Part shown: positions 36,706 through 51,658 of the stretch, in pieces
Layout: each line of letters opens with the position of its first letter
Position numbering within the stretch: position 1 is the first letter of the stretch
NCBI GenBank assembly: GCA_001821135.1
Contig: MHSA01000012.1
Coordinates: forward strand, 6,341-70,340
Reading direction: 5' to 3'
Length of the DNA: 64,000 nucleotides
From: Candidatus Taylorbacteria bacterium RIFCSPLOWO2_01_FULL_48_100
GTDB lineage: Bacteria > Patescibacteriota > Minisyncoccia > Phycocordibacterales > UBA10002
Position numbers and translations under genes: made by a program
The notes under the pieces: model-generated
The model's database searches: none
What the model was told of the DNA's origin: nothing
Seen by the model: only the letters and a program-made list of their open reading frames with translations

Positions 36706-36777
36706 CGGGCCCACCAGGACTCGAACCTGGAACTCTTCTTTTGGAGAGAAGTGTTTTGCCATTGAAACTATAGGCCC
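36706..36777 (-). tRNA. tRNA-Trp(CCA)
   Basis: Minus strand. Acceptor gggccta/tgggccc, anticodon loop cuCCAaa, T-loop ttcgagt. Its 5' end overlaps the miaA stop region by ~10 nt. Confidence 0.8.
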
Positions 36778-37748
36778 TCGTGCTCAAGCATATCAAATAT
36801 TTGCTTTTTTTGCGATGGGAGAAACCACTGTATTTCTTTATTTCTTTTAAACCAAGTCATTTGCCGTTTGGCGTAGAGGTATATTTCCGTTTGCAACTTC
36901 TCAATCATTTCTACTTTAGTCATATATCCGCGTAAGTAGCGCGATAGATATCGGTACTCAAGTCCGAGCGATTCCATCCGTTTCCACGACAGGCCGCGCT
37001 TATGTAGCCGCCGCGCCTCTTCTATCATTTTATACCTTCTAATTCGCGCGAATAAGCGCATAGAGATTTTCTTTTTTAATTCCGCGGGTGGAAGTGTGAT
37101 GCCGAGCCATACAACATTAAGCGAGCGGACAAAGGCAAGGCGTTCTGAAAAACTGGGGTGGGGGCGTGGCCATTCAATTCTGATTGAATGGGGGGGTCCG
37201 CCTGAGGCGGACAGAACGCTCTTGTCGGCGTCCGCGAGCGCGATTTCGATTGCACGCACAAGACGACGCGGATTGTGTGAATCTATTGTTTCCGCGCGGT
37301 GCTTGTTAAGTGTTTTGAGAAGTGCGAATAATTCCGGCGCGGATTTTTTCTCCAGTTTTTTGCGGAGCGCGGGGTTTGGCGGCACATCGGGAATTTGAAC
37401 GCGCCCGAGCGCGGCGTCTATATAGTGACCCGTGCCGCCGCAGATAATAGGGAGGCGGCCGCGCGCAAAAATCTCTGAGATTTTTGCGCGAGCAAGTTTT
37501 TCATAATCCGCCGCCGTGAATTGTTTTTTCGGATACGCAACATCAAGAAGGTGGTGGGGGACTCTGCGCATTTCTTTTTTGGTAATTTTACCAGTGCCGA
37601 CATTGAGTCCCTTGTACACCTGCCGTGAATCGGCAGAAATTACCTCGCCGCAAAATTTGCGCGCAAGCGTTACCGCGAGCGCGCTTTTTCCACTCGCCGT
37701 CGGTCCGACAACGACAATTATTTTTTTCTTTTTCCGTTCACTGCGCAT
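36768..37748 (-). CDS. miaA: tRNA dimethylallyltransferase
   Basis: P-loop (VVVGPTASGKS) and MiaA core. Confidence 0.85.
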   Translation of the reverse strand: MRSERKKKKIIVVVGPTASGKSALAVTLARKFCGEVISADSRQVYKGLNVGTGKITKKEMRRVPHHLLDVAYPKKQFTAADYEKLARAKISEIFARGRLPIICGGTGHYIDAALGRVQIPDVPPNPALRKKLEKKSAPELFALLKTLNKHRAETIDSHNPRRLVRAIEIALADADKSVLSASGGPPHSIRIEWPRPHPSFSERLAFVRSLNVVWLGITLPPAELKKKISMRLFARIRRYKMIEEARRLHKRGLSWKRMESLGLEYRYLSRYLRGYMTKVEMIEKLQTEIYLYAKRQMTWFKRNKEIQWFLPSQKKQIFDMLEHEGL

Positions 37749-42622: not shown

Positions 42623-42745
42623 TTAAAAGATGGGGGTGTAAAGCAGCACCATTGAAATGATAATCAGAAAACATACGACCGCCCAAATGATCCCGACTAT
42701 CTTTTTGTGTTTTTTATTGAGTAGCATGTGGTAGAGTATAACACA

Positions 42746-43132
42746 ATGCACCAATTTCGCACGAGAAAAACATTTCGCGATTTTTTGTATTCGCCTGTTG
42801 CAATCGCGCTTTTGGTTACGCTTGCGTTCTTTTTGGTGCGCATTGTGTGGGGTTCATTCGTCGGGTATCGTGAAGCCGCGCGCGCGCGAGTGGTGGCGGA
42901 AGCGCGCGCACTTGAATTAGAAACGGAGAAAACAAGAGCTTCGGTGCGCGCGGCCACGGCGGGGAGCGCGCGCGCTGCGGAGGAGGAGATACGGGAAAAA
43001 CTGCATATGGCTCTTCCTGGCGAGGAAGTGATTGTAATTACTGATGAAGAAGATTTCTCACGCGATGAAATACTTGCTGACGAAGAGACATTGTTGTGGC
43101 AACGGTTTGTAGATTGGGTTATAAATAGATAG
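42746..43132 (+). CDS. septum formation initiator FtsB/DivIC-like protein
   Basis: TM helix, coiled coil, and C-terminal EEIREKLHMALPGEEVIVI. Confidence 0.6.
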   Translation: MHQFRTRKTFRDFLYSPVAIALLVTLAFFLVRIVWGSFVGYREAARARVVAEARALELETEKTRASVRAATAGSARAAEEEIREKLHMALPGEEVIVITDEEDFSRDEILADEETLLWQRFVDWVINR

Positions 43133-43133
43133 T

Positions 43134-43204
43134 GCGGATATGGTTTAGTGGCAGAACAGGTGCTTCCCAAGCATCGGGCGGGAGTTCGATTCTCCCTATC
43201 CGCA
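43134..43204 (+). tRNA. tRNA-Gly(CCC)
   Basis: Acceptor gcggata/tatccgc, anticodon loop uuCCCaa, T-loop ttcgatt. Confidence 0.8.
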
Positions 43205-43256
43205 TAAGCGATTCTCGTTTATACTGTAACATATTTATTGGCGTAATTTTTAATTT

Positions 43257-43505
43257 ATGACGCAAGAAACAGTAACCATTTATTCAACGCCGTCGTGTGT
43301 ATATTGCAATTCGGCAAAGAAATTCTTCACCGAACGCGGTGTTGCGTACACTGAATACAATGTGGCGGACGACATTAAAAAGCGAGAGGAAATGACTGCA
43401 AAGAGCGGGCAGATGGGCGTGCCTGTAATCACAATCGGTTCACGCACAATTATAGGATTCAATCAATCGTTGCTTGAAGAGGCACTCGGAGGCGTGGTAT
43501 CGTGA
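43257..43505 (+). CDS. glutaredoxin/NrdH-like redoxin
   Basis: CVYC active site and thioredoxin fold length (82 aa). Confidence 0.8.
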   Translation: MTQETVTIYSTPSCVYCNSAKKFFTERGVAYTEYNVADDIKKREEMTAKSGQMGVPVITIGSRTIIGFNQSLLEEALGGVVS

Positions 43506-43598
43506 TGCAAACCTCCTATAGTTCAATAGATAGAACATCCCCGTCCTAAGGGGAAGATGTGGGTGCAATTCCTGCTAGGGGGATGCTATACTTATATT

Positions 43599-43874
43599 AT
43601 GTCTCCAGAAGAAAAAGCACTGCTTCTCAAGACCGCGGAGTTGGTGAAAGAAAATAATTCGCTACTCCGCAAGATGCGACGCGGCGCGCGTTTCCGCGCG
43701 GTTCTCCACGCTCTTTATTGGGTAGTTATTATCGGGCTTTCGTTCGGCGCATATTACTTTCTTGAACCCTACATCGCACAGGTGGAAAAAATCTATTCGG
43801 GCATCAGAGGCGATATAGACAATGTACGCGGCACGGCGGATACCATAGGCGACTTCGGGAAGTTGCTGCAATAA
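43599..43874 (+). CDS. hypothetical membrane protein
   Basis: One TM helix. Followed immediately by the copy 2 structured element. Confidence 0.4.
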   Translation: MSPEEKALLLKTAELVKENNSLLRKMRRGARFRAVLHALYWVVIIGLSFGAYYFLEPYIAQVEKIYSGIRGDIDNVRGTADTIGDFGKLLQ

Positions 43875-43880
43875 AAGACG

Positions 43881-44015
43881 CTCGGAATGCTGCTTTTGCA
43901 GAACCGGAAGATTTCCCCTGCGAGGAAATCTTCCTTATCCGCTCGCCTCGCTCTTCCTCGCAGACTCGGAATCCATGCCCGCTCGGCTCCTCGCCGTTCC
44001 GCAAAAGCACATTCC
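43881..44015. repeat. TIR-bounded structured element, copy 2 (short form)
   Basis: Near-identical to 23442-23556 plus the shared 3' arm. Outer stem ggaatgctgcttttgcagaac/gttccgcaaaagcacattcc. Confidence 0.7.
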
Positions 44016-44096
44016 TCACTCTCGTTATTTATTTCAACACTATTCCAATTAAACGCTATAGCAAGTAACTGGAATAGTTTACTCAATTCAACATAC

Positions 44097-44140
44097 ACTA
44101 TCTCTAGCAATCGCCAAAGATAGTGTATCCAATCATTTTG
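44097..44140. repeat. hairpin family X, copy 2
   Basis: tacactatctctagcaatcgccaaagatagtgta + attttgc. Confidence 0.5.
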
Positions 44141-44200
44141 CCTGCCCGCCGACGAGGAGGGCAAAATGTCTGTATATCCCGACATCCTCTTTGGCACCAG

Positions 44201-44232
44201 ATGTTGATGGTTTCAAACATCTGGTGCGTCTC
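44201..44232. repeat. hairpin family Y, copy 3
   Basis: caccagatgttgatggtttcaaacatctggtg. Confidence 0.5.
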
Positions 44233-44270
44233 GGGACATAGTTTATATTTTGTGATAACATATATTTAGA

Positions 44271-44566
44271 GCCGAGGTAGCTCAGTTGGTAGAGCGTCCG
44301 CCTGAAATCTTCGGGCCTTTCCGCCGCAAGGCGGATAGAAAAGCGGGTGAAATCGGGGAACATCCAATGACAAACAATCGGACAATCCCGAGCCAAGCTC
44401 GCCGAATAGGCGAGAAGGTGTAGAGACTATTCCTTTGGGAAGTACCCTCTTTTTAACAAAAGATGGGGAAGCGCCCGCCCCCTACTCCATCAAAGATGGA
44501 CGGGTGATGATATAGTCCAAATTATGGAAGAGCGGTAGGTCGGCAGTTCGATTCTGCCCCTCGGCA
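44271..44566 (+). tRNA. tRNA-Phe(GAA) interrupted by a group I intron in the anticodon loop
   Basis: 5' exon 44271-44303 (acceptor gccgagg, D-arm tagctcagttggtagagc, anticodon-stem 5' strand tccgc, loop cu|). 3' exon 44527-44566 (gaaga, anticodon-stem 3' strand gcggt, variable loop, T-arm ggcag-ttcgatt-ctgcc, acceptor cctcggc-a). Confidence 0.7.
44304..44526 (+). other. group I intron (~223 nt) within tRNA-Phe
   Basis: Contains group I core-like elements: P-like aaaagcgggtgaaa, Q-like aatcccgagc, R-like tagagactat, S-like gatatagtcc. The last 5' exon base is U, the intron ends in G, and an internal guide GGGC can pair with the exon end GCCU. Confidence 0.6.
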
Positions 44567-44600
44567 TTTGTAAAATTAGGAATTTTTTATAAAAACCACT

Positions 44601-44789
44601 ATGGCAAAAATTAACTGGGGTCAGGCGTCGGTTGACGGGCTAAATAAGACGGTGTTGGAGGAAAAGAAGAGATTGGAGTTGGAGCAAGAAAAAAGAAAAT
44701 TACATCTCTCGGCATCAAAATCTGATATTGAAACAGTCAGAAAAGTAATGAACGCGCTCGGTGTTAGTGTGGATGATTTGGTGAAGTAA
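44601..44789 (+). CDS. small hypothetical protein (coiled-coil, possibly DNA-binding)
   Basis: 62 aa, AT-rich. First gene of a tightly packed three-gene island. Confidence 0.4.
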   Translation: MAKINWGQASVDGLNKTVLEEKKRLELEQEKRKLHLSASKSDIETVRKVMNALGVSVDDLVK

Positions 44790-44793
44790 AAAT

Positions 44794-45339
44794 ATGCTTA
44801 ACAAAATTGATTTTGAAAATATAGTTCGGGATTTCTTATTTACATATAGGAAATTTCTATTCTACGCTTATTTGCACAAAAGGGTAAATCACGACGCATA
44901 CGAAGCAAACAGGATAACTTGGGATACCTTGCTTATTAGCTTAGAATCAGATGCATTACTTGGATTAGCAAAAATACTTTATGACAGGGAAAAAAGCTTG
45001 GGAAGGCCATTCAACGACGGCTCGGGAAAAACATTTAATAACGAAGAATTTAATAACGAAGAATTAAATGAGATTCGCAAAAAAATACTAAACCTGAGAC
45101 ATGATTACCTAGCTCACCAAAATTTATCGAAGATGCGTAATATGGATTCACTTTTGAAGGAAAACCGCTTGACAGGTACAGATGGCGTGAAAATGATCGA
45201 TGCGCTTAAAAGTAGGTTCATTCAATATGAAAAAAATCTTAAGCTCGATGTCAATGTGCAAAAACTATTTACCGAAAGCCAAAATAATGCGCTTAACGAC
45301 CTTGATAGTTGGTTGAAATCTTTTAAGACAGCGCTGTAA
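44794..45339 (+). CDS. hypothetical protein with HEPN-like R-x5-H motif (Abi-like candidate)
   Basis: LRHDYLAH fits the Rx4-6H HEPN signature. 181 aa, AT-rich. Confidence 0.4.
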   Translation: MLNKIDFENIVRDFLFTYRKFLFYAYLHKRVNHDAYEANRITWDTLLISLESDALLGLAKILYDREKSLGRPFNDGSGKTFNNEEFNNEELNEIRKKILNLRHDYLAHQNLSKMRNMDSLLKENRLTGTDGVKMIDALKSRFIQYEKNLKLDVNVQKLFTESQNNALNDLDSWLKSFKTAL

Positions 45340-45365
45340 GTAGAGACAATTTTAGAAATAGATTT

Positions 45366-47819
45366 ATGGCGAAAAAAATATCCAAATCTGGAAATAACTT
45401 TCTAACTGAGCGCGAGGGTCAGATTAAATTTTTCGACGATTTCAAGATAAGTGTCGATGTCGAACTTACTCATAATACCGATGGTGTATATAAGGGTACA
45501 TTATTCGAGTTCAAACTCACCGTATCAGACATTAACAAAGCACTTTTTCAAGCCATAAAATATCTCAGTCACAGACGAATTAGAGGTGAACCAGTGCCAG
45601 CGCAGATCTTACTCGTAGCACTCAACGAAGAGAATGCATATTTATTTGATTCTGGCGATTTCCTTACAGAGATTGAAAAGGTTTATGCTGGTGCTGCTAG
45701 TAAAAATAATGCTGATTTTAGCACTAAGATTAAACCGGAAAAAATTGATTACGGTGAGGCATTTGGCCTGCAACATATCAAAAAAATCCTAAACAAAGAA
45801 CACTTCACTAAAATAAATATTGATGTTTTTGATGTTGTCGGTTGGGCAAATCGATTTTACCGAGAAAACCCATCTGCTAGTAAAATCGAACTTTTCAAGG
45901 AGCTGCGTGCACCAAAACATTTTGCAACTTACATTTATCCATGGACAGGCGATGAAAAAGATTTCAAGTACATCATGGACCTTCTCAATGACACGCAACA
46001 CAAAAAAGAACTCGGTGCCTTTTATACACCACCAGCGTATTGTCGCAAAGCCACGGAATTAGTCCGAAAAGCTATTAGGCAAATACCGGTTGGCCACGAT
46101 TACATTATTCTTGATCGATGCGCCGGTACGGGCAATTTGGAAGAATTCTTAACCGATAAAGCGGTAAAAGATATAACTATCGGTGAGTTAAGCCGCTACA
46201 TCGATAACACTCTTAAAATAAAATATCTGCAGGACAAGGCTGATATTATTGCAATATTTTATAACAAGCGAAATTTTAACGAAATCACCGTTGGAGAATT
46301 GGAGAATCACAAAACCGGTCTCTCACTTTACGATTATATTTTTGACGATGAGCTATCTCATACCATCGTCAATACCTACGAGTTAAAAGAATGGATAGTG
46401 TTGAACTGGCGCATAGGAAATCGTGTCAAGCTCATAATTCCACCGCCACAGGAGATTGATAATACTGAATCGTTAGTCGATGGTGGCGATGCACTAAGTG
46501 TGCAATTTGTTACTGGCCAGAAGTCTATCGGTATGACGGATGAATATAATGATAGCATCGATATGCTTTCGGAGTGTGTCAAAAACAAAAAGACAAACAT
46601 TATTTTATATGAAAATCCGCCCTATCGAGATACGACATCTAATACGCATTTAGCAAGTTCTGGGAAAGGCGCGAATTTTGTTAAGGATGAAATGGCATCT
46701 GAAAAGAGGTGGGGTGCTACGCAAAACGATATTGCCAACCAATTTATTTGGTCAGGATGGAAGCATTATCTCACAAAGCCAGATGATTATTTTGTACTTT
46801 TCAGCCCCATAAAGTATTGGAAATCACTTGGTCTTGGTGAAAAGAAATTCATTGACGGCTTTTTGTTTAACCGCCAATTTTTTCATGCTGGTCCTAGTGC
46901 TATCAGTTGTATTTTATGGAACAATACTAACGACAGTCGTGAGTCGTTAACACTTAAAGCTTTTGATATAGACACGAATAACACACCAGAACAAGAAGAC
47001 GACACAATCGTTTATTTCAAAGATATAACAGTCAACAAAGTACATGAATCGTTGAAGCCATATTTTGATAAACGAAGATTTGATGACGATGTCGATATCT
47101 CCGTTGTTGTCGAACTATCTGGTCTTGAATCGTCTAAAAAGATTACAAAAAAACCAATCTACAACAAAAATATAGTCGGCCATATAAGAATCACAAGCTT
47201 CAATCTTGATCCGATAAGCATGTCATTGACTACAGTGGTAACACATAACGGTCTAACGAAGACAATTGGTTTTTATTTGCGTTCTGACAATTTTATTGAA
47301 AAATTACCTCTATTTGCAGCCAAACTGTATCCGCAAAAAAATTGGTATGAGCGCGACACATACTTTACTACAGCCGATGGTGGTGACCGTTATCTAAAAG
47401 ACAAAGATTTTTTGAAAGCATGTTTTATATTTGCTTGTATTAGTCAGCGCAACCATTGTCGGAGCTTCGATGGTAGCGATGGTCGATTTTACAAGAACGA
47501 GCTTTGTTTTGATAAAGGCACGGTGGCAAGTAGCAAACTAAAAAGCTACAAATTTACTAATCAGGAACTGGATTTGATAGATACTTTTACAGATGTGCTT
47601 ACAAAAGCAAAATCTACTAAAGAGTACAACTCAAAGTACACATATGGAACATATCAAATCGACGAAGAACTTAACACTCGCTATAAAAATGATAACGATG
47701 AATGGATCTACGATTATCCGGAACTCAACACGGCGATTAACAGTTTAAAGACGAAATTAGCTAAGTATTATGAGATCGCTATTCAGCCAAAGCTGTTTGA
47801 ATATGAACTACTAAAATAG
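45366..47819 (+). CDS. fused PD-(D/E)xK nuclease / gamma-class N6-adenine DNA methyltransferase / specificity protein (Type IIG/IIL MmeI-like R-M enzyme, or a BREX PglX-like enzyme)
   Basis: N-terminus D...EFK (VDVELTHNTDGVYKGTLFEFK). Methyltransferase motif X (GAFYTPPAY), motif I (ILDRCAGTGNL) and motif IV (ILYENPPYRD). Long C-terminal region. AT-rich. Confidence 0.55.
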   Translation: MAKKISKSGNNFLTEREGQIKFFDDFKISVDVELTHNTDGVYKGTLFEFKLTVSDINKALFQAIKYLSHRRIRGEPVPAQILLVALNEENAYLFDSGDFLTEIEKVYAGAASKNNADFSTKIKPEKIDYGEAFGLQHIKKILNKEHFTKINIDVFDVVGWANRFYRENPSASKIELFKELRAPKHFATYIYPWTGDEKDFKYIMDLLNDTQHKKELGAFYTPPAYCRKATELVRKAIRQIPVGHDYIILDRCAGTGNLEEFLTDKAVKDITIGELSRYIDNTLKIKYLQDKADIIAIFYNKRNFNEITVGELENHKTGLSLYDYIFDDELSHTIVNTYELKEWIVLNWRIGNRVKLIIPPPQEIDNTESLVDGGDALSVQFVTGQKSIGMTDEYNDSIDMLSECVKNKKTNIILYENPPYRDTTSNTHLASSGKGANFVKDEMASEKRWGATQNDIANQFIWSGWKHYLTKPDDYFVLFSPIKYWKSLGLGEKKFIDGFLFNRQFFHAGPSAISCILWNNTNDSRESLTLKAFDIDTNNTPEQEDDTIVYFKDITVNKVHESLKPYFDKRRFDDDVDISVVVELSGLESSKKITKKPIYNKNIVGHIRITSFNLDPISMSLTTVVTHNGLTKTIGFYLRSDNFIEKLPLFAAKLYPQKNWYERDTYFTTADGGDRYLKDKDFLKACFIFACISQRNHCRSFDGSDGRFYKNELCFDKGTVASSKLKSYKFTNQELDLIDTFTDVLTKAKSTKEYNSKYTYGTYQIDEELNTRYKNDNDEWIYDYPELNTAINSLKTKLAKYYEIAIQPKLFEYELLK

Positions 47820-47907
47820 TATAGAAAATCCCACTCTCTTTCAGAAAGTTATCAGATGTTATGCAAAACCCACAATCGGGCAAAAGGTAATCGTTAAAAA
47901 ATTATAA

Positions 47908-47948
47908 CACACACCCGATGTTTGAAGCCCATCAACATCGGGTGTTGT
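47908..47948. repeat. hairpin family Y, copy 4
   Basis: cacccgatgtt-tgaagcccatc-aacatcgggtg; loop sequence identical to copy 1. Confidence 0.55.
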
Positions 47949-47977
47949 GGAATGGATGAATTGCCTAGTTTGATTTC

Positions 47978-48042
47978 ACCTTCAGTTTTGTCTGCCTGTC
48001 CTTGTCTATTTTCGGGAGCTTGATGATGAGGTCATGTTTTTT
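47978..48042. repeat. duplicated fragment of the hsp20 3' end (last ~20 codons plus stop)
   Basis: The reverse complement encodes IIKLPKIDKDRQTKLKVKSN*, matching the hsp20 C-terminus at 48164-48230. The nucleotide repeat is tgtctattttcgggagctt(g/t)atgatgagg. Confidence 0.6.
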
Positions 48043-49370: not shown

Positions 49371-51446
49371 TTATGCAAGAGACCATTTTTGCACTATAAG
49401 CATACCTTCTTTTTCTTTCGGCTGCTTCCACAACTGCCAAATTTCTTCCGTAATAAACGGCATAAATGGATGGAGGAGTTTCAGTGTGTTTTCTAAAAGG
49501 TAATGAAGTGTCGCGCCTCGCTCCTGCATTGTTTTGCTTTCCTCAATAATTTCGTCTGCGAGGCGATGCCATAGATAATGATAGATTTTTTCGGCGGCGA
49601 GGTGGAAGCGGTACTCCTCCATATCACTGGTGATGTCGCGCGCAAGCGCGTCAAACTCTTTTTTGAGTGCTTCATCTATTTCACCTGTATTTTCGCGCGA
49701 GAGAATATATCGCGCGATATTCCACACCTTGTTTGCAAAGTGTTTATATCCTTTTATTTTATCCTCTGAAATGTTGGTGTCCGTCCCGGGCGTGTTGCCG
49801 ACAATGAGTGCCATTCGCCCCGCATCCGCGCCAAATTTCTTTGCGACATCTATCGGGTCTATGCCGTTGCCGAGGGATTTTGAGAATTTCCTGCCCTGCG
49901 CATCGCGCACAAGGCCGTTCAAATAAACAGTGCGAAACGGAACAACTCCGAGTGCATATTCCGACATCAGAATCATCCGCGCCACCCAGAAAAATAAAAT
50001 ATCAGAACCGGTTTCCAGCACATCAGTCGGATGGTATGTTTCTAAATCCTTTGTTTTCTCAGGCCAACCGAGCGTAGAAAATGTCCAAAGTCCAGATGAG
50101 AACCAAGTGTCCAGAGTATCTTCCTCTCCGTCAATCGGAATCTTGTGCCCGTACCAAATCTGGCGCGAGATGCACCAGTCGCGCAAGTTCTCAATCCAGT
50201 GAAAATATGTTTTCGCAAAGTGTTCAGGAATTATTTTTATCTCACCTTTTTCCACCGGCTCGCGCATAAGCTCTTTCAGCGTTTTATTTCCGCGCACTGG
50301 AATCGGCTTGTTTACATCTATAAACCACTGCAATTTCGGAAGCGGCTCAATGATGCCGCCAGTGCGTTCCGCAGTCGCAATATTGTGCGTAATGTCTTCT
50401 TCCTTTTCTAATAATCCTTTTTCTTTGAGCCATGCGTTCACAATTTCGCGCGCTTCCGTAACCTTCTTACCTTCTACGAGCGCACCCGCATTTTGCATCC
50501 GCGCATATTCATTGATAATGATGCGTGTCTTGTCCAGGCCGTTCCGCTCCGCAATCTCCCAATCCGTCTGGCTATGCGCGGGAGTTATACCAACCGCACC
50601 GGTGCCGAATTCCGGGTCCACTTCCGTGTCTCCTACAACTTTGATGGAAAGCGGAACGCCGGCAAAGTCGGCGAACGCAAATGTCTGCCCGATATATTCC
50701 TTCAACTTTCCATCGGGATGCACCGCAACGCCCGTGTCGCCTAGTTTTGTTTCGGGGCGCGTCGTAGCAATCGGGATAGGGAAGTCCTTCGCGTAGCGAA
50801 AGGTATACAATTTTGTTTTCTGTTCAACATAAACAATCTCATCGTCTGAAATTGTTGTTTGGCCTTTCGGGTCCCAGTTGACAATGCGATTACGGCGGTA
50901 AATAAGCCCATCATCGTGCATCATTTTAAACATCGCACGGACTGCCTCACTGCGTTTTTCATCAAGTGTAAACGCCTCACGCGACCAGTCGCAACTCGCC
51001 CCCATCGCCTTTATTTGTGAGACGATAGTATCGTGGCTCTCTTTTGCAAATTTTTCCACGCGCTTCAGGAATTCATAGCGCCCAAGGTCGTGCCGTGTTT
51101 TCTTTTCTGTTTTATAAATATCTTTCTCAACGCGCGCCTGCGTTGCAATCGCCGCATGGTCGGTGCCTGGAATCCAGAGTGTCTTATATCCGCGCATCCG
51201 TTTGTAGCGCACCAATATATCTTGAATAGTTAGCATCAGCGCGTGCCCCATATGCAACACGCCGGTTACATTCGGCGGAGGCATAATGATAGTGAATGGC
51301 TTCGGTTCCGGAGCTTTGCCCTGCTTCGCCAAGGCTACGGCAGGGTGCGCCTCAGGCGCAAAAAACCCGCTGTCTTCCCACTGCTTGTAAATCCGCGCTT
51401 CGGTATCAGCGGATTGGTACGGCTTCGTGAGTTTTTCGGGCAGCAT
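49371..51446 (-). CDS. valS: valine--tRNA ligase (reduced, no C-terminal coiled coil)
   Basis: HIGH region (PPPNVTGVLHMGHA) and KMSKS region (KFSKSLGN). Editing domain present. Confidence 0.9.
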   Translation of the reverse strand: MLPEKLTKPYQSADTEARIYKQWEDSGFFAPEAHPAVALAKQGKAPEPKPFTIIMPPPNVTGVLHMGHALMLTIQDILVRYKRMRGYKTLWIPGTDHAAIATQARVEKDIYKTEKKTRHDLGRYEFLKRVEKFAKESHDTIVSQIKAMGASCDWSREAFTLDEKRSEAVRAMFKMMHDDGLIYRRNRIVNWDPKGQTTISDDEIVYVEQKTKLYTFRYAKDFPIPIATTRPETKLGDTGVAVHPDGKLKEYIGQTFAFADFAGVPLSIKVVGDTEVDPEFGTGAVGITPAHSQTDWEIAERNGLDKTRIIINEYARMQNAGALVEGKKVTEAREIVNAWLKEKGLLEKEEDITHNIATAERTGGIIEPLPKLQWFIDVNKPIPVRGNKTLKELMREPVEKGEIKIIPEHFAKTYFHWIENLRDWCISRQIWYGHKIPIDGEEDTLDTWFSSGLWTFSTLGWPEKTKDLETYHPTDVLETGSDILFFWVARMILMSEYALGVVPFRTVYLNGLVRDAQGRKFSKSLGNGIDPIDVAKKFGADAGRMALIVGNTPGTDTNISEDKIKGYKHFANKVWNIARYILSRENTGEIDEALKKEFDALARDITSDMEEYRFHLAAEKIYHYLWHRLADEIIEESKTMQERGATLHYLLENTLKLLHPFMPFITEEIWQLWKQPKEKEGMLIVQKWSLA

Positions 51447-51658
51447 ATTCTTATATATTAACAAGAAAAAACCCGCTTTGCACACCCCCGCATTTTAATT
51501 GCGTATTATAAGATAGGTAATTAGTGAATGCGGTGGTGAGAAGTTGCACTTTTATTGTTTTTGTCATAAAGATCCTTTCTGGTATGTGCTAGCATAGTAG
51601 CATACCTATGTCAAGCGTTTTCATTTTGGCGGAAAACAGGCATACTATCCGCACGCGT

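Follow-up and report, generated by a model that had tools for sequence, protein, structure and literature searches.

A compact group I intron interrupts the anticodon loop of a tRNA-Phe(GAA) gene in a Patescibacteria genome

Results

In the 64-kb stretch of Patescibacteria DNA analysed here (the window), from a tiny bacterium of groundwater, the tRNA-Phe(GAA) gene at 44271..44566 of the forward strand (296 nt) is split between U33 and G34 by a 223-nt insert. The insert has the fold of a group I intron, carries group I splice-site signatures and has coevolved with its exons, and a relative of the host carries the same site precisely empty. We put the probability at about 0.92 that this is a functional tRNA-Phe(GAA) gene interrupted by a compact group I ribozyme without a reading frame. 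The gene is laid out as follows.

44271..44566 (+): complete gene, without encoded CCA; called by ARAGORN when introns are permitted and when the spliced sequence is submitted, and identical in three assemblies
44271..44303 (+): 5' exon, tRNA positions 1-33, last base U33
44304..44526 (+): group I intron, 223 nt, no reading frame, terminal G (omegaG) at G44526; matched by Rfam RF00028 and absent from contig L125
44527..44566 (+): 3' exon, tRNA positions 34-73, anticodon GAA, G37

With default settings, ARAGORN reports six tRNAs in the 64-kb window and none at 44271-44566. Allowing introns recovers tRNA-Phe(gaa) with a 223-nt intron at this locus, and the 73-nt sequence obtained by taking out 44304-44526 is also called as tRNA-Phe(GAA). 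A previous reading made from the letters alone (the sequence-only reading) had proposed this tRNA identity and had held that a cloverleaf can be assembled only once the insert is removed; the three runs agree with it on both points. The spliced tRNA-Phe folds as a normal cloverleaf, with an acceptor stem of seven pairs, regular D and T arms, and an anticodon stem of five positions, four of them paired and one a U27/U43 mismatch. A separate intact tRNA-Phe alongside a degenerate copy here would have spoken against an interrupted functional gene, and the window holds neither: ARAGORN and the Rfam scans found no second tRNA-Phe within the 64 kb, and the locus is not degenerate.

The gene content of the window is that of a bacterial chromosome (GyrA, PolX, SerRS, a Clp-type ATPase, LepA, ValRS and PBP2). 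A phage tRNA cluster, suspected from the six other tRNAs, is ruled out by gyrA, PolX, serS, lepA, valS and mrdA, and a search of a phage collection gave no match to the interrupted tRNA-Phe gene. Scanning 43900-44800 for sigma-70-type promoters found no site, and four terminator-like matches on the minus strand inside the intron proved to be the intron's own GC-rich helices. Elsewhere in the window, the valine-tRNA ligase frame (49371-51485, minus strand) encodes 704 aa, compared with models of 860-863 positions, and its best-scoring residues, 21-451, span just the first ~410 model positions. This enzyme may be shortened; shortened enzymes are often reported for reduced genomes.

The Rfam covariance model RF00028 (Intron_gpI) matches 44294-44532 on the forward strand over its full length (model 1-253), with 58.6 bits against a gathering score of 50 bits and an E-value of 2.7e-12. 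This is the sole group I match in the 64-kb window, and it upholds the class that the sequence-only reading had given to the insert. We looked for a reading frame in the intron and found none, the longest stop-free stretch being 59 codons; the 223-nt intron thus lacks the encoded homing endonuclease of a mobile group I intron. Its secondary structure was drawn by hand from the Rfam alignment and then checked base by base, giving the following elements.

44300..44316 (+): P1, GCCU (exon) and GAA (intron) at 44300-44306 with UUCGGGC at 44310-44316, U44303.G44313 at the exon-intron border; fully paired across 61 sequences
44309..44312 (+): guide bases CUUC, forming P10 with the 3' exon GAAG at 44527-44530; C44309-G44530 covaries
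44320..44335 (+): P2 hairpin, UCCGCC/GGCGGA, 44320-25 with 44330-35, GCAA loop; covariation and thermodynamic fold
44343..44349 (+): P3 5' strand GCGGGUG, partner 44472-44478; 98.8% paired
44353..44391 (+): P4, 44353-58 with 44386-91, around P5, 44363-68 with 44377-82 (one A.C mismatch); alignment and thermodynamic fold
44392..44419 (+): P6, 44392-94 with 44417-19, around P6a, 44398-403 with 44409-14; alignment pairing
44423..44429 (+): P7 5' strand, G-A(bulge)-GACUA, in which G44423 and 44425-29 pair with 44513-44518 (UAGUCC); six pairs invariant
44430..44467 (+): P7.1, 44430-33 with 44438-41, then GUA, then P7.2, 44445-53 with 44458-67; refolds in 13 type B relatives
44472..44478 (+): P3 3' strand CGCCCGC; alignment pairing
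44479..44504 (+): P8, 44479-81 with 44502-04 and 44486-91 with 44495-500; thermodynamic fold and compensatory change relative to the related locus L068
44505..44518 (+): J8/7 UGAUGAUA and the P7 3' strand UAGUCC; invariant or nearly invariant columns
44519..44526 (+): 8-nt 3' tail AAAUUAUG, last base terminal G44526, no P9 hairpin

The elements that define a group I intron are all present. A U.G wobble in P1 marks the 5' splice site (U44303.G44313), the intron ends in G (G44526), and the guide pairs with the 3' exon in P10 (CUUC 44309-12 with GAAG 44527-30). The P3-P8 core is complete, P7 forms a pseudoknot with P3, and a P7 G-C pair lies beside the bulged base, A44424; by homology, P7 would be the guanosine-binding helix. 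Thermodynamic folding of 239 nt (the intron with eight exon bases per side) reproduces P1, P2, P3, P4, P5, P6a, P7.2 and P8, with an energy of -85.9 kcal/mol where shuffles give -67.1 +/- 4.6 (z = -4.07). Hairpins at 44430-41 and 44445-67 occupy the place where, in the Michel and Westhof scheme, extra helices P7.1 and P7.2, inserted after the 5' strand of P7 and ahead of the 3' strand of P3, reportedly denote subgroup IA, and they point to that subgroup for the window intron.

Splicing would follow the two-step chemistry that is the established group I mechanism. The gene would be transcribed as a 296-nt precursor, in which P1 would form between the guide at 44309-44316 and the seven bases around the 5' splice site, four of the exon and three of the intron, placing U44303.G44313 at the 5' site. 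Free guanosine held in the P7 pocket (G44425-C44517, by bulged A44424) would attack after U33. P1 would then yield to P10 as the guide pairs with the 3' exon GAAG, terminal G44526 would take the same P7 pocket, and ligation of the exons would give the 73-nt tRNA-Phe. We infer that the intron itself catalyses these steps and needs no protein. In the Patescibacteria rows consulted in the per-genome table of Nakagawa et al. 2026 (PMC13011429) there is one tRNA-Phe gene each, and in the row of GCA_016699995.1 it is the interrupted one. Since the window likewise holds no other tRNA-Phe, splicing of this gene is probably essential.

Three features count against activity, namely the missing P9 hairpin, the A.C mismatch in P5 and the U27/U43 mismatch in the anticodon stem, and they could lower it or impose protein dependence. 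A genuine group I intron that needs a protein helper in the cell, as CYT-18-dependent and maturase-dependent introns do, would also fit the reduced periphery, the absence of P9 and the 8-nt tail, with which the tertiary contacts of many group I introns are missing. Yet the intron encodes no protein, it is retained in minimal genomes, and both related Patescibacteria introns (those of tRNA-Asn and tRNA-Asp at 35/36) and classical bacterial tRNA introns self-splice in vitro (PMC13011429). We consider dependence on a helper unlikely, and autonomous splicing the better account of this intron.

A search of public metagenomes with the 30 nt of the spliced junction, matched exactly, yielded 46 contigs with uninterrupted tRNA-Phe genes. 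Contig L125 (Ga0209211_10159931) is syntenic with the window, with tRNA-Gly(CCC), tRNA-Arg(CCT) and tRNA-Phe in the same order. Its upstream 1,246 bp show 84.8% identity to window positions 42660-43898, and the 60 bp preceding tRNA-Phe are conserved between the two. The L125 tRNA-Phe is identical to the predicted spliced product of the window at 73/73 positions, precisely the 223 nt of the insert are missing, and similarity fades directly after the gene. This empty site therefore defines the limits of the insert independently. It agrees with the splice register on 44304-44526, the boundaries and 223-nt length that had been proposed from the letters alone.

The empty site also indicates that presence of the intron varies among close relatives, and L068, which lies at a distance from the window similar to that of L125, keeps its intron. 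Gain, or precise loss, without a homing endonuclease is implied. We offer only tentatively, as a rather doubtful possibility, that the intron is still moving or being precisely lost among close Patescibacteria without such an enzyme; reverse splicing into tRNA-Phe, or recombination with a copy already spliced, would be examples of a route.

Downstream of tRNA-Phe, 4 kb (44567-48000) are AT-rich, with a GC content of 0.375-0.39 compared with ~0.49 for the window. This region encodes proteins of 62, 181 and 817 aa, none of which matches a Pfam family at the required score; a weak match of the 181-aa protein to HEPN_AbiU2 reaches 19.2 bits, below the 26.8 cut-off. An island integrated at tRNA-Phe is not demonstrated, there being no repeat of the tRNA 3' end in the window and only sub-threshold Pfam matches.

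A scan of one genome per prokaryotic species, using the pattern of a tRNA-Phe D-arm, CTGAA, 2-12 bases and TTCGG, returned 85 loci. Sixty are tRNA-Phe(GAA) genes split after U33, with inserts of 198-336 nt, and four are of the split type but cut off at contig or locus ends. About 19 are uninterrupted tRNA-Phe genes of other phyla that match the pattern by chance, and two are duplicated tRNA 5' halves. Nearly all of the 60 split loci have hosts whose labels place them in Patescibacteria (candidate phyla radiation) lineages, among them Saccharibacteria, Berkelbacteria, Magasanikbacteria, Kerfeldbacteria, Peregrinibacteria, Falkowbacteria, Buchananbacteria, Doudnabacteria, Yanofskybacteria, Colwellbacteria, Liptonbacteria, Giovannonibacteria and Paceibacterota. 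Eight loci (L026, L032, L043, L059, L063, L070, L077 and L083) come from bins labelled 'uncultured Gammaproteobacteria' and contain tRNA-Phe introns of the Patescibacteria type; the labels of these third-party assemblies are probably wrong.

The window, the 60 related loci and a published Doudnabacteria intron make up 62 family members, and all 62 mapped introns follow a U and end in G. In a MAFFT alignment of 61 sequences, standard pairs fill 82.6% of cells, against 69.9% in shuffles (0 of 500 reach the observed value), and the covariation score is 0.321, against 0.116 in shuffles. Sliding the partners by 1-3 columns as a control leaves 30-49% paired. Support extends along the intron: P1 is 100% paired, with its U.G invariant (61/61) and two pairs covarying with the exon (GC54/CG7; CG35/AU25/GC1); P2 is 83-98% paired and all of its pairs covary; P3 is 98.8% paired (CG30/UA24/GC6 and CG30/UA27); and P4 is 98.9% paired, with two covarying pairs. 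P6 (99.5% paired) is nearly invariant, all six pairs of P6a (98.6%) covary, and P7 (99.7%) is invariant, including the bulged A. Pairing is lower in P5 (68%) and P8 (54-70%), because MAFFT does not align the length-variable hairpins of P5 and distal P8 structurally.

Coevolution reaches into the tRNA. The fourth P10 pair, C44309-G44530, joins a guide base to tRNA position 37 and is 95% paired (CG in 32 sequences, UA in 26, other in 3). The guide sequence of each intron tracks positions 30 and 31 of its own tRNA, in the anticodon stem, as well as position 37, which is the signature expected of a ribozyme recognising those exons. Bacterial tRNA-Phe usually has A37. The window tRNA-Phe has G37 (44527-44533), and a MiaA-type isopentenyltransferase gene lies nearby at 36768-37748; across the family, G37 occurs in ~35 sequences and A37 in ~27, and the intron guide base covaries with it.

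Two structural types are found. Type B, with P7.1 and P7.2, is that of the window and of 13/62 family members in all, whose P7.2 sequences differ and covary; type A, with a single P7.1 hairpin and a conserved 17-18-nt loop, accounts for 48/62. Of the 62 members, 28 have a P9 hairpin, capped by a GNRA-type loop, and 34 have none at all. Closest to the window intron is that of L068 (84.5% identical), and the differences between them cluster in P5, P6a, P7.2, P8 and the tRNA T-stem and are largely compensatory. Of the 84 alignment columns conserved at 90% or more, the window copy deviates at one, within the variable P7.1/P7.2 stretch.

These comparisons bear on whether the locus could be a decayed, non-splicing relic, that is, a tRNA pseudogene whose function is covered by a second, intact tRNA-Phe elsewhere in the genome. 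The view here is limited to 64 kb of that genome, and the window copy lacks P9 and carries one mismatch each in P5 and the anticodon stem, all of which a relic would accommodate. It would not be expected, however, to have kept all invariant core positions and to match 83/84 of the conserved columns, with both exons intact and identical to the uninterrupted tRNA-Phe of L125. About half of the family likewise lacks P9, and the published Patescibacteria rows cited above, with their one tRNA-Phe each and the interrupted copy in GCA_016699995.1, leave a spare gene improbable. We judge a relic to be very unlikely.

Several family members have further features at their 3' ends. In many (L012, L025, L063, L069 and the Doudnabacteria intron among them), the 6-12 bases that lead up to the terminal G repeat the 5' strand of the host tRNA's own anticodon stem. 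Such tails can pair with exon positions 39-43, with full 5/5 pairing in 29% of cases compared with 3.5% when stems of other loci are used, and could serve as a helix positioning the 3' splice site. The window intron has no tail of this kind. At the two duplicated halves, L036 (DJWS01000008.1) and L058 (JANPEU010000354.1), an intact tRNA-Phe is preceded, 83-134 nt upstream, by a partial copy of its 5' half. They were rejected as introns, having no terminal G and no group I features, and resemble the duplicated attachment site that an integrated element leaves behind.

The exact splice register is constrained by the same alignment. Because GAA stands at both junctions, four registers give one identical product, and an intron lying 1-3 bases further 3' (34/35, 35/36 or 36/37) would leave the tRNA unchanged. 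ARAGORN puts the intron after position 34, and 35/36 is the commonest site in Patescibacteria (PMC13011429). Only the U33/G34 register, however, combines a U before the 5' site with a G at the intron end, in keeping with the start after U and the final G described from the letters alone. The U33.G pair is moreover invariant (61/61), and the flanking P1 and P10 pairs covary in the 33/34 register, making a shifted intron highly improbable. The GAA repeat is itself explained by P1 and P10, in which the start of the intron and the start of the 3' exon pair alternately with the same guide bases. Boundaries are misplaced by ARAGORN (introns allowed) at other loci too, where it calls tRNA-Ile(GAT) for L009, L046, L049 and L057 and tRNA-Phe(AAA) for L032; the register with U(-1) and terminal G gives tRNA-Phe(GAA) in all five.

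The LepA protein of the window is also encoded on MHRG01000010.1 (GCA_001820885.1), as well as on metagenome contigs of other samples in ENA and JGI. The species-representative scan did not return MHRG01000010.1 although its pattern matches the window, so GCA_001820885.1 is evidently not one of the representatives. The 296-nt interrupted gene is identical in three independent assemblies (NCBI, ENA and JGI), so the insert is not an assembly artefact. With this identity across different samples, 60 homologous loci in other genomes and the covariance-model E-value, an assembly chimera or an unrelated insertion resembling an intron by chance is effectively refuted.

Discussion

The window locus is a further member of a published class, and not a new host tRNA, site or intron type. 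Williams 2020 (bioRxiv 10.1101/2020.01.27.920355) raised the number of host/site classes for group I introns in bacterial tRNAs from the four classical ones to 21. Its seed alignment contains 'Mba55.Phe.2Ug', which lies in tRNA-Phe at loop position 2 (33/34), follows a U and ends in G. The supplementary table of Nakagawa et al. 2026 lists Phe(GAA) 33/34 in Doudnabacteria GCA_016699995.1, and its Table S5 lists a Phe(GAA) intron at 31/32, of subgroup IA3, in Elusimicrobiota GCA_023213235.1. The window intron belongs to class 'Phe.2Ug' (tRNA-Phe 33/34) by its tRNA-Phe(GAA) host, its U33/G34 site and its homology to the published members. The sequence-only reading had expected a Phe host to be uncommon. 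Phe is indeed not one of the four classical hosts, yet these two reports and the 60 further genomes found here show that it is no new host.

The nearest published relatives, the Doudnabacteria GCA_016699995.1 and Mba55 introns, are like the window in host (tRNA-Phe(GAA)), site (33/34), U and terminal G at the intron borders, and G37. They share its P1/guide string (GCCU, the splice site, then GAA..CUUCGGGC) and have identical core strings (GACAAUCCCGAGCCAAGC, GAAGGUGUAGAGACUA and GAUGAUAUAGUCCAAA). The Doudnabacteria intron is ~65% identical to that of the window over 197 aligned positions, and both lack a reading frame and P9. It is shorter, however (211 nt against 223 nt), and of type A, with a single P7.1 whose loop is GUGAGCCCAACAAUAAU, whereas the window is of type B with P7.1 and P7.2; its 3' tail, unlike that of the window, copies the anticodon-stem 5' strand.

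The Patescibacteria Asn and Asp introns at 35/36 in the 2026 paper come from the same phylum and resemble the window intron in core sequence and size. Those of Paceibacteria tRNA-Asn (GCA_025999335.1 and GCA_026016225.1) have the same P7.1-GUA-P7.2 module, at ~60% identity. As a group, the Asn and Asp introns differ from the window intron in host tRNA and in site (35/36 rather than 33/34), and hence in guide sequence; in addition, most have P9 and some have homing endonuclease genes, whereas the window intron has neither. The Elusimicrobiota 31/32 intron also sits in tRNA-Phe(GAA) of an uncultured bacterial lineage, but its site is two bases upstream, its subgroup is IA3 and its identity to the window is ~50%; it is probably an independent insertion.

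The classical IC3 set comprises the introns of cyanobacterial tRNA-Leu(UAA) at 34/35, tRNA-fMet at 33/34, Azoarcus tRNA-Ile(CAU) and Agrobacterium tRNA-Arg(CCU). Like the window intron, these are small, belong to the self-splicing class, have no reading frame and lie in the anticodon loop, with the anticodon stem-loop contributing to P1 and P10; the tRNA-fMet intron also has the 33/34 position in common with it. IC3 introns possess a P9 hairpin but lack hairpins in the P7-to-P3' interval, and the sequence of the Anabaena tRNA-Leu intron agrees on both counts. The Anabaena intron is ~50% identical to that of the window, near background for aligned group I cores.

Among the Patescibacteria tRNA introns of PMC13011429, none is assigned to IC and nearly all are IA. 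One member of the family collected here, L011:74-324 (DATIHX010000004.1, Saccharimonadales), shares the P1-P6 region and has no hairpins between P7 and P3', and the 3' half of this intron resembles IC3 introns (GACUAUGCACCCAAGGCCUAAAUCGAAAGACAAGGUCAAGAGAGAGUCC). If truly of IC type, it would be an exception to the published claim that Patescibacteria tRNA introns are never IC.

The window intron leaves current understanding unchanged, and is mildly novel only in its empty-site relative and its very compact form without P9. Should the intron indeed still be moving or being precisely lost without a homing endonuclease, this 223-nt, P9-less form would be an IA-type ribozyme of unusually small size and might serve as a minimal model. 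For genome annotation, a default tRNA finder misses the gene, so that the genome would falsely seem to lack tRNA-Phe; inferences of completeness and codon usage for candidate-phyla-radiation genomes are affected accordingly. The 61-sequence set, the case of coevolution between guide and anticodon arm, and the relative with a precise empty site are usable for studying intron gain and loss. Earlier work describes minimal genomes that keep self-splicing introns in tRNA genes that are possibly single-copy, and the locus adds one more well-documented case.
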